Made by a program: the position numbers and the translations under genes
The notes under the pieces: model-generated
Database searches by the model: none
Told to the model about the DNA's origin: nothing
Seen by the model: the letters and a program-made list of their open reading frames with translations, nothing else
Assembly (NCBI RefSeq): GCF_013122565.1
Contig: NZ_CP053258.1
Length of the DNA: 64,000 nt
Origin: Escherichia coli
GTDB taxonomy: Bacteria; Pseudomonadota; Gammaproteobacteria; Enterobacterales; Enterobacteriaceae
Reading direction: 5' to 3' (one strand)
Part shown: positions 39,040-42,114 of the stretch, one piece after another
Layout: each line of letters starts with the position of its first letter
Position numbering within the stretch: the stretch's first letter is position 1

Positions 39040-40401
39040 GTGGAAAAAGAAAATATCACCCTCGATCCGCGTTCTTCATTTACTCCATCTTCGTCGGCAG
39101 ATATTCCCGTGCCACCAGATGGATTAGTTCAACGCAGTACCCGAATTAAACGCATTCAAACCACCGCCATGTTGTTATTATTTTTTGCGGCGGTAATCAA
39201 TTATCTCGACCGCAGTTCGCTGTCAGTAGCAAATTTAACGATTCGTGAAGAATTGGGATTAAGTGCCACCGAAATCGGCGCTTTGCTCTCCGTGTTTTCA
39301 CTCGCTTACGGGATTGCGCAACTTCCTTGCGGCCCACTATTGGATCGTAAAGGCCCACGCCTGATGCTGGGACTGGGGATGTTCTTCTGGTCACTGTTCC
39401 AGGCAATGTCTGGCATGGTGCACAGCTTTACGCAGTTCGTGTTGGTGCGTATCGGTATGGGGATTGGTGAAGCGCCGATGAACCCATGCGGTGTAAAAGT
39501 CATTAACGACTGGTTCAACATCAAAGAGCGCGGACGCCCGATGGGCTTCTTCAACGCAGCTTCTACCATTGGCGTTGCCGTAAGCCCACCGATTCTGGCG
39601 GCGATGATGCTGGTGATGGGCTGGGGCGGGATGTTTATTACCATTGGTGTACTGGGGATTTTTCTCGCCATCGGCTGGTATATGCTCTATCGCAACCGCG
39701 AGCACGTAGAACTGACTGCCGTTGAACAAGCTTATCTCAATGCAGGTAGCGTCAATGCCCGCCGAGATCCGCTCAGTTTTGCCGAATGGCGCAGCTTGTT
39801 CCGTAACCGCACAATGTGGGGAATGATGCTCGGATTCAGTGGCATCAACTACACTGCGTGGCTGTATCTGGCCTGGCTTCCTGGTTACCTGCAAACAGCC
39901 TATAACCTGGATTTAAAAAGCACAGGGTTGATGGCGGCTATCCCTTTCCTGTTTGGGGCTGCCGGGATGCTGGTCAACGGTTACGTTACTGACTGGCTGG
40001 TCAAAGGGGGAATGGCTCCGATTAAAAGCCGTAAGATCTGCATTATTGCCGGGATGTTCTGTTCTGCCGCCTTTACGCTGATAGTACCACAAGCGACAAC
40101 ATCCATGACGGCGGTTCTGCTGATTGGCATGGCACTGTTCTGTATTCACTTTGCCGGAACATCCTGCTGGGGCTTGATCCACGTCGCAGTTGCTTCTCGC
40201 ATGACTGCGTCGGTGGGCAGTATCCAGAACTTTGCCAGCTTCATCTGCGCCTCTTTCGCGCCGATCATTACTGGTTTTATTGTTGATACCACCCACTCAT
40301 TCCGTCTGGCACTAATCATCTGCGGTTGCGTCACCGCAGCGGGGGCACTGGCATACATCTTCCTGGTTCGTCAGCCGATCAACGACCCACGTAAAGATTA
40401 A
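39040..40401 (+). CDS. lgoT: MFS L-galactonate:H+ symporter LgoT (YjjL)
   Basis: 453 aa, about 12 TM segments, MFS signature; synteny. Confidence 0.85.
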   Translation: MEKENITLDPRSSFTPSSSADIPVPPDGLVQRSTRIKRIQTTAMLLLFFAAVINYLDRSSLSVANLTIREELGLSATEIGALLSVFSLAYGIAQLPCGPLLDRKGPRLMLGLGMFFWSLFQAMSGMVHSFTQFVLVRIGMGIGEAPMNPCGVKVINDWFNIKERGRPMGFFNAASTIGVAVSPPILAAMMLVMGWGGMFITIGVLGIFLAIGWYMLYRNREHVELTAVEQAYLNAGSVNARRDPLSFAEWRSLFRNRTMWGMMLGFSGINYTAWLYLAWLPGYLQTAYNLDLKSTGLMAAIPFLFGAAGMLVNGYVTDWLVKGGMAPIKSRKICIIAGMFCSAAFTLIVPQATTSMTAVLLIGMALFCIHFAGTSCWGLIHVAVASRMTASVGSIQNFASFICASFAPIITGFIVDTTHSFRLALIICGCVTAAGALAYIFLVRQPINDPRKD

Positions 40402-40449
40402 TCTCCTTATGCCCGATAACATTTTGCTTATCGGGCATTTTCATGGCGA

Positions 40450-42114
40450 TTAAAATGTTTCCCAGTTCTCCTCGCTATCTGCCACGGCCATTTTACGCGG
40501 CGTAGCTGGCGTCACGGTTTTTACTACAGCCGATGTTTCACGCTGCTGTTGCTGCTGTTGCTGAATTCGGAACACTGCCACTGCTTCGGTCAGGCGACTG
40601 GCCTGCTCTTCCAGCGCGGCGGCGGCGGCGGCAGATTCTTCCACCAGCGCGGCGTTCTGTTGAGTTACCCGGTCCATCTCAGCAACCGCTAAGCCAACCT
40701 GATCGATACCACGGCTCTGCTCATCAGAAGCAGAAGCTATTTCGCCCATAATGTCCGTCACGCGGGTCACGGCACTGACAATCTCCGCCATTGTTTCCCC
40801 GGCGCTTTCGACCAGCGTAGAGCCAACATCCACTTTCCCCACCGAGTCTTCAATCAGGCTTTTAATTTCACGAGCCGCCTGGGCGCTGCGCTGGGCCAGA
40901 TTACGCACTTCTCCCGCGACCACCGCAAAACCGCGCCCTTGCTCACCCGCACGCGCAGCCTCAACCGCGGCGTTCAAAGCCAGAATATTGGTCTGGAAGG
41001 CAATGCCGTCAATTACGCTGATAATATCGGCGATTTTCTGCGAACTGGTGGAGATATCGCGCATAGTCTGCACCACGTTATCTACCACTTTGCCGCCGCG
41101 TTGCGCCGTTTCAGAAGCACTTAATGCCAGATGGCTGGCCTGGCGCGCATTCTCGGCGTTCTGTTTCACCGTTGCGGTCAGTTGCTCCATGCTGGCTGCA
41201 GTCTCTTCCAGCGAAGCGGCCTGTTGCTCGGTGCGCGAAGAGAGATCGTTATTGCCGGTAGCGATTTCGCTGGCACCGCTATAGATGGCATTGGCCCCGT
41301 TGCGCACATCACCGACGGTACGCATCAGCTCTCCCTGCATATGGCGCAAACTCTCAGCCAGTTGCCCCATCTCATTAGAGCCATCCACCTCAATCGGTTT
41401 CACCAGATCGCCGCTTGCAATATGACGAATGCTGTCAATCAGGCGATTCATTGGCGCTACCAACGAGGCTTTAATACCGAACCAGACGGCGAAGATGACC
41501 GCCAGTACGGCGATCATCACGCCCACCAGAATCCACATCGCCTGGCTGTAGGAGGCATGGTTATCGCTGACGGCGATATCATAGAGCCGATCGTTTTGCT
41601 CCATGTAAGCCACATACTGCTTCTCGAAACCGTCCTGATATCCCTGGGTCGGCTGATCAAAGAACTCGTTGATTTTGCCTGCACCTAACAGTTGGATCAG
41701 CTCCGCCAGCGCATTGTGATAAATATCGTAATTACGTTTGATCTCTGCCGCTGCGGCGGTGCTCTGACGCGGGTCACGCGGCAACGCTTCGTAATCCGCC
41801 CAGTTTTTTTCCGCCTGTTTCAGCGAAATACTGGCACTCTGCATCAGCTCAGCAACGGTTGAACCGCTACCAATATTGTTCTGATCCATCATGTAGCGGA
41901 TACCCGCGCGGTTGAGGGTGTTACGCGTCTGCAACAACGCGACCCAGCTGCCATTCAGCGTGGATTGCTGCTGGCGAATGGTTTGTAAAACAGTGAAATT
42001 TTCTTTGTCATTCTTTAAGGCATTAAAGAACAGACCGCCTGATGTCAGTTGTAAAAGGCCAAAAACGGCCAAAACCAGCAGTAAGCTGGTCACGATCTTG
42101 ATACGTTTTAACAT
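40450..42114 (-). CDS. tsr: Methyl-accepting chemotaxis protein I (serine chemoreceptor) Tsr, with expanded poly-Gln tract
   Basis: [27 protein letters not shown] and MCP signalling domains; C-terminal NWETF pentapeptide. Confidence 0.95.

Follow-up and report, generated by a model that had tools for sequence, protein, structure and literature searches.

The C-terminal tether of the serine chemoreceptor Tsr is described as an unstructured linker of approximately 30–35 residues, which keeps CheR and phospho-CheB docked on the NWETF pentapeptide close to the methylation sites (PMC7390727, PMC10561060). EPR evidence for the disorder of the tether comes from Tar (Bartelli & Hazelbauer, 2011, as cited in PMC7390727). 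The length of the tether has been altered in Tar: in chains of 22, 29, 34 and 46 residues the peak of the CheR position shifts linearly, by 0.128 ± 0.048 nm per residue (PMC10561060), and the linker truncations of Li & Hazelbauer (2006), as cited in PMC10561060, belong with these engineered tether-length variants. Like the Tar variants, the alleles of tsr described here alter how many residues separate the receptor body from NWETF. The Tar variants, however, are laboratory constructs with changes of 5–12 residues, whereas the tsr alleles are natural, move in steps of three residues and are known here from sequence.

The Tsr protein of K-12 (MCP-I, 551 aa), the tether of which is printed as IQQQQRETS... 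in a 2023 paper that is independent of this analysis (PMC10561060), is like the Tsr encoded in the 64-kb stretch of DNA that we analysed (the window) in its gene, in the order of its TarH, HAMP and MCPsignal domains, in its pentapeptide and in its position beside lgoT. The window protein differs from it in having one additional 9-bp unit in a glutamine tract (7 Gln as against 4), a tether of 33 rather than 30 residues, and the substitutions N186H, V202A and G234S, which are private to the window. A Tsr of 554 aa with 7 Gln is already known from many RefSeq protein accessions and from the PDB, and the window tract adds nothing new to these. In the RefSeq and PDB alleles (such as WP_000919544.1, from JJ1886, and the Tsr portion of 3ZX6) the Gln tract and the tether length are identical to those of the window and elsewhere there are only scattered point substitutions.

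Among PDB entries, 3ZX6, an Af1503-HAMP/Tsr chimera, has the 7-Gln tether with ...ADSGENWETF, and 6S1K, an array model, has the K-12 four-Gln sequence; published Tsr constructs are thus not all of the K-12 type. The Tsr chains of 1QU7 and 8C5V stop at residues 520 and 516, respectively, so that most or all of the tract lies outside them.

The in-frame coding VNTRs of bacteria that are used in MLVA typing share with the tsr tract short head-to-tail units, whole-unit variation between strains and recurrent change. In comparison with these VNTRs the copy number of the tsr tract is very low (1–4). A full-text literature search found no description of a glutamine or VNTR polymorphism in tsr or of the 4/7/10/13 series reported below, although this is not proof that it is undescribed.

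The tsr gene and its glutamine tract

The features of the gene and of the tract within it are as follows.

40450..42114, minus strand: tsr CDS, serine chemoreceptor MCP-I, 554 aa plus stop (ORF, Pfam, NCBIfam NF011615, 99 % identity to K-12 Tsr)
40543..40563, minus strand: Gln tract of seven codons, CAG CAA CAG CAG CAA CAG CAG, Q518–Q524 (sequence read, Tandem Repeats Finder, allele series)
40555..40563, minus strand: 9-bp repeat unit 1, CAGCAACAG (Tandem Repeats Finder, period 9, 100 % match; allele series)
40546..40554, minus strand: 9-bp repeat unit 2, CAGCAACAG (K-12 alignment with a single 9-bp gap)
40543..40545, minus strand: trailing partial unit CAG, common to every allele (allele series)
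40468..40566, minus strand: C-terminal tether I517–E549, 33 residues, from the end of the signalling bundle to the pentapeptide (sequence; I517 boundary according to PMC10561060 and PMC7390727)
40453..40467, minus strand: NWETF pentapeptide, CheR/CheB docking site (sequence; function from PMC7390727)

Pfam analysis of the window protein shows PF02203 (TarH, residues 1–176), PF00672 (HAMP, 217–263) and PF00015 (MCPsignal, 327–484), all far above the cut-offs. The NCBIfam Tsr equivalog NF011615 gives 1222.5 bits against a cut-off of 947 and aligns over residues 1–554 on a profile of 554 positions. The Tar model NF011622 gives 751 bits, which is under its cut-off of 900 and lower than the score of the Tsr model. 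The gene is convergent with lgoT, as it is in K-12, O157:H7 and JJ1886 (the orthologous chromosomal position), and the protein ends in the NWETF pentapeptide on a 33-residue linker counted from I517. By these matches the gene is tsr, with the Gln tract opening the predicted C-terminal tether; serine binding and CheA/CheW signalling are its assigned, putative functions. A 72-aa ORF on the plus strand (40533..40751), antisense to tsr, is without support and was treated as spurious. In a scan for promoters and terminators around tsr the number of sites was no higher than in shuffled sequence.

The reverse complement of 40543..40563 reads seven Gln codons of the CAG/CAA type, as the initial annotation of this DNA had stated. 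The tract is flanked by ATT (Ile517, 40564..40566) and CGT (Arg, 40540..40542), and the range given earlier, 40541..40566, comprises the Ile codon, the seven Gln codons and part (two bases) of the Arg codon. The placing of the tract in the flexible tether before NWETF was also correct, and more precisely it lies at the start of the tether (I517 on). Tandem Repeats Finder describes the tract with a period of 9, 2.4 copies and a 100 % match, whereas a fit with period 3 matches just 78 %. Nowhere else in the 64-kb window is there a perfect run of period 9 that reaches 21 nt, and Markov simulations give an expectation of 0.01 such runs. The repeat structure is (CAG CAA CAG)n followed by CAG, a perfect 9-bp unit, with n=2 in the window.

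In the K-12 derivative TOP10 the tract is CAG CAA CAG CAG, which encodes four Gln in a Tsr of 551 aa. Alignment of TOP10 with the window leaves one 9-bp gap at the tract and cannot tell which of the two 9-bp copies K-12 is without. The span at the tract in MG1655 is 117 bp, the same as in TOP10, which gives four Gln. The four Gln that the annotation had given for K-12 Tsr are therefore found in TOP10, in MG1655 and in the published tether (PMC10561060).

A series of alleles in 9-bp steps

Test sequences of 126–135 nt were built around the tract and searched against all complete E. coli genomes, 5,342 of which have allele counts. The 7-codon test sequence matches 4,056 genomes at 95 % identity or more (without a gap), 1,283 at 90–95 % (with one 9-bp gap) and 3 at 80–90 %. 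The 10-codon test sequence matches 72 genomes at 95 % or more, 4,059 at 90–95 % and 1,211 at 80–90 %. The two sets of counts agree (4,056+3 = 4,059; 1,283−72 = 1,211). They give the four alleles listed here, with percentages that describe the database and not nature, the genome collection having a clonal bias and a high share of laboratory strains, including many of K-12; the ranking of the allele frequencies is robust despite this bias.

4 Gln: 1,211 of 5,342 complete E. coli genomes, 22.7 %, K-12 and the type strain among them
7 Gln: 4,056 of 5,342 complete E. coli genomes, 75.9 %, the allele of the window
10 Gln: 72 of 5,342 complete E. coli genomes, 1.3 %
13 Gln: 3 of 5,342 complete E. coli genomes, <0.1 % (RM14723, A13 and Z1323HEC0355)

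The sequences that were read directly form a strict series of 4, 7, 10 and 13 Gln, namely (CAGCAACAG)1-4 + CAG. Alleles with 5, 6 or 8 Gln are absent from the 5,342 complete E. coli genomes; the best matches to these lengths are 4- and 7-codon alleles aligned with a 3-bp gap. We also scanned 109 metagenome contigs with a pattern that allows a free gap of 0–30 nt. Seven Gln are present in 76 of these contigs (70 %), four in 29 and ten in 4, and the scan returned no intermediate length among the 109. The repeat-length polymorphism for which a comparison of tsr alleles across E. coli had been proposed is thus present, with 4, 7, 10 or 13 Gln in the 5,342 genomes. A trinucleotide (CAG) microsatellite or polyQ expansion locus was considered and rejected, as the alleles do not move in 3-bp steps in either the 5,342 genomes or the 109 contigs. 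A phase-variable contingency locus was rejected as well: the 9-bp unit is in frame, and the reading frame through NWETF is intact in all sampled alleles.

Point substitutions are seen inside the tract. Strain 06-00048 has CAT (His) as the seventh codon of the tract, 2014C-3338 has CAT as the ninth of its ten tract codons, and in one metagenome contig codon 4 of the tract is CAA, not CAG. Interruptions of this kind should damp further slippage.

Recurrence of length change, its probable mechanism and the tether

We placed the tract lengths of 23 tsr genes, a sample deliberately enriched for rare alleles, on a neighbour-joining tree made with the tract removed. Fitch parsimony gives at least 10 changes in tract length. 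Pairs of genes with different tract lengths can be closely similar over 1,644 nt: O111:H8 (7 Gln) and HS (10 Gln) have 2 differences, 8178 (10 Gln) and RM14723 (13 Gln) have 5, 94-3024 (10 Gln) and 3PT (7 Gln) have 6, and CP53 (7 Gln) and 58-3 (4 Gln) have 10. Over the same 1,644 nt HS and LF82, both with 10 Gln, have 25 differences, and K-12 and 58-3, both with 4 Gln, have 30. All four tract lengths are found inside one closely related tsr haplotype group. Intragenic recombination in tsr is evident from mosaic differences among the aligned genes, and part of the scatter in tract length could be due to allele transfer rather than new slippage. Recombination is nevertheless insufficient as the full cause because near-identical backgrounds carry different lengths. 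The scattered tract lengths fit recurrent slippage or unequal exchange between 9-bp units.

Taken together, the data make it highly probable that the tract is a coding VNTR with a 9-bp unit, that the window carries the commonest, two-unit allele with a typical tether of 33 residues, that whole units are gained and lost by slippage or unequal exchange, and that K-12 has undergone a one-unit contraction. The tract has at least two head-to-tail units (Tandem Repeats Finder), strains differ from one another by whole units and the change is recurrent, which are the properties of a coding VNTR. Copy number moves by whole units, with 1, 2, 3 and 4 units corresponding to 4, 7, 10 and 13 Gln. The 9-bp copies would most likely change in number by replication slippage (slipped-strand mispairing) or by unequal exchange with one another. 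Pure CAG runs are limited to two codons by the intervening CAA, which would be the reason why there are no 3-bp steps. In the two-unit allele a 9-bp misalignment finds 12 nt of homology and a 3-bp misalignment almost none. The one-unit allele, which has 3 nt of repeated homology as against 12 nt in the two-unit allele, would re-expand less readily. The tract may be regarded as a clean natural case in which a potential triplet microsatellite becomes a repeat with 9-bp steps through CAA interruptions within CAG. The initial annotation had called the trinucleotide repeat a likely slippage hotspot. The hotspot part of this stands in so far as length change is recurrent (at least 10 changes among the 23 genes), with slippage as its probable mechanism, but the trinucleotide unit does not stand, as the alleles step by 9 bp.

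The tether would act as an unstructured leash that keeps CheR and CheB close to the methylation sites, so that a gain or loss of three residues would be tolerated. By analogy with Tar, each 9-bp unit should correspond to approximately 1.1 nm of contour length and approximately 0.4 nm in the most probable position of CheR. The predicted effect of copy number on the tethering of CheR and CheB is small and graded, and we infer that the changes are near neutral or of small kinetic effect.

A different possibility, which we consider quite unlikely, is that the repeat is an adaptive tuning knob, in which tether length sets the reach and kinetics of CheR and CheB and is selected by niche in the manner of a slow, graded contingency locus. 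The frequency of change (at least 10 changes among 23 genes, with four lengths in one haplotype group) would be in keeping with this, as would the finding that adaptation kinetics in Tar measurably depend on tether length (PMC10561060). Additionally, the tethers of the orthologues are kept within 32–36 residues among the matches listed, which suggests that length matters. However, 1–4 copies of a 9-bp unit are far below the numbers in classical contingency loci, and a unit that is in frame cannot give on/off switching. The three 13-Gln alleles come from different hosts and have identical proteins, which suggests that the locus is stable on an epidemiological time scale. The match lists, on inspection, showed no association with host or niche, and the predicted effect of approximately 0.4 nm per step is small. 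A selected, graded adjuster of the tether, with lineages of 30, 33, 36 and 39 residues that differ measurably in the kinetics of serine and AI-2 adaptation, is an idea that we hold to be unlikely. If it were true, K-12, the basis of quantitative chemotaxis models, would stand apart functionally, its leash being unusually short.

Direction of length change and the surroundings of tsr

The direction of change between the two-unit and one-unit alleles of the 9-bp VNTR was assessed with a scan of species-representative genomes for outgroups. The matches listed were from Citrobacter, Enterobacter, Leclercia and one divergent Escherichia, and E. albertii, E. fergusonii and Salmonella were not among them; the polarity given here is accordingly that of one near outgroup together with the conservation of tether length. 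The closest outgroup among the matches listed is the divergent Escherichia, deposited as E. coli SCPM-O-B-8794, with a Tsr of 554 aa and 94 % amino acid identity. At the tract this protein reads RIQQAQQRQHE, which is equal in length to the window and aligns without a gap. The DNA of its tract is imperfectly periodic (CAG CAA GCG CAA CAG CGT CAG).

Tether residues were counted from the equivalent of R516 to NWETF. The tether is 33 residues in the window, 33 in SCPM-O-B-8794 and 30 in K-12. The other 14 Enterobacteriaceae orthologues with at least 82 % identity among the matches listed have tethers of 32–36 residues, most commonly 33, and the K-12 tether is below those of all 15 orthologues with at least 82 % identity among the matches listed. 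The Fitch root state of the tract on the neighbour-joining tree of the 23 tsr genes, made with the tract removed, is 7.

The initial annotation had described the window tract as expanded. Given that most genomes (76 %) and most of the 109 contigs (70 %) have 7 Gln, and given the outgroup tether length and the Fitch root state, it appears instead that the window is not expanded and that K-12, like the other 4-Gln genomes (23 % in all), is contracted by one unit; the term has the polarity the wrong way round. For single events the direction is one that we infer. An ancestral 7-Gln sequence is a weaker claim than an ancestral length: the outgroup tract, although equal in length, lacks the perfect 9-bp periodicity and point changes alone are insufficient to relate the two, so the perfect 9-bp duplication could equally have originated in the E. 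coli stem by contraction and subsequent re-expansion.

The reading in which the window allele arose by expansion from a K-12-like ancestor with four Gln, through slippage of CAG/CAA triplets, is very improbable on these data. It would account for the four Gln of K-12 and for a tract composed of CAG and CAA triplets, and the 10- and 13-Gln alleles prove that expansions happen. It is opposed by the position of 7 Gln as both majority allele and Fitch root state, and by tether length, since the 7-Gln tether has the outgroup length and the 30 residues of K-12 are fewer than in every orthologue among the matches listed. The absence of 5-, 6- and 8-Gln alleles from the 5,342 genomes and the 109 metagenome contigs also indicates a unit of 9 bp and not of 3 bp. 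Finally, sequencing or assembly artefacts in a low-complexity stretch can hardly be the source of the length differences: some long-read assemblies can miscall short repeats, but the lengths differ by exact multiples of 9 bp, unlike homopolymer-type errors, and many laboratories have obtained the same alleles in thousands of finished genomes. The alleles are replicated in independent resequencings of HS, LF82 and K-12, and are also present in short-read metagenome assemblies and in PDB constructs (3ZX6, 7 Gln; 6S1K, 4 Gln).

With the K-12 allele read as a one-unit contraction of the 9-bp VNTR, the K-12 Tsr tether is three residues shorter than that of 76 % of sequenced E. coli, which is relevant to K-12-calibrated models and to tether-length experiments. 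The window carries the standard E. coli allele and so the result has little significance for the window itself.

K-12 TOP10 and the type strain ATCC 11775 have identical tsr genes (0 differences over 1,644 nt) and the same Tsr and LgoT protein accessions. We take K-12 and ATCC 11775 to belong to different phylogroups; if they do, the identity of tsr would point to recombinational transfer of the region.

There is a second triplet repeat in tsr, at 40615..40632 on the minus strand, where five GCC codons and one GCG encode AAAAAA (residues 495–500) in the structured C-terminal helix. This poly-Ala repeat is 60 bp upstream of the length-variable Gln tract. No length variants of it were found among the 23 aligned tsr genes and the further rows that were sampled, with the exception of a deletion in E. 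coli 3PT (mink). The tsr gene of 3PT (137..1768) has an in-frame deletion of 33 bp (11 codons) that spans the poly-Ala repeat, encodes 543 aa and lacks approximately residues 487–498. The deleted region presumably holds the methylation-site glutamate E493, and the 3PT receptor is probably defective because the deletion would remove this residue. The disordered linker thus tolerates changes in length, in contrast with the nearby (GCC)5 in a structured helix, for which no whole-codon variants were sampled save that of 3PT.

Compared with 22 E. coli tsr genes, the window gene has three private amino acid changes (N186H, V202A and G234S in the HAMP region) and three private synonymous changes. This 3:3 ratio hints at relaxed constraint on the window Tsr, on numbers that are tiny. 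The exact window Tsr protein has no record in a collection of 15 billion proteins.

Among 5,426 complete E. coli genomes the best match to each of two separate 22-kb parts of the window has 98.2 % identity, and the best metagenome contig has 99.1 % identity to the window. The best genome matches span approximately 32.6 kb for a 22-kb query and so carry approximately 10.6 kb that is absent from the window. A search of the window for IS-like internal repeats found none.

E. coli is polymorphic downstream of tsr, where there is either lgoT, which encodes an MFS transporter (39040..40401 in the window, and also in K-12), or a TRAP-transporter operon. In some E. coli strains hpaR and the hpa operon lie upstream of tsr. 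In the window the convergent genes lgoT and tsr are 48 bp apart, and the gap contains a perfect 11-bp inverted repeat at 40409..40441, ATGCCCGATAA-N8-TTATCGGGCAT, followed by TTT. A simple terminator scan did not flag 40409..40441 because the T-run is short. To judge from its sequence and position, this inverted repeat is probably a bidirectional terminator shared by lgoT and tsr.
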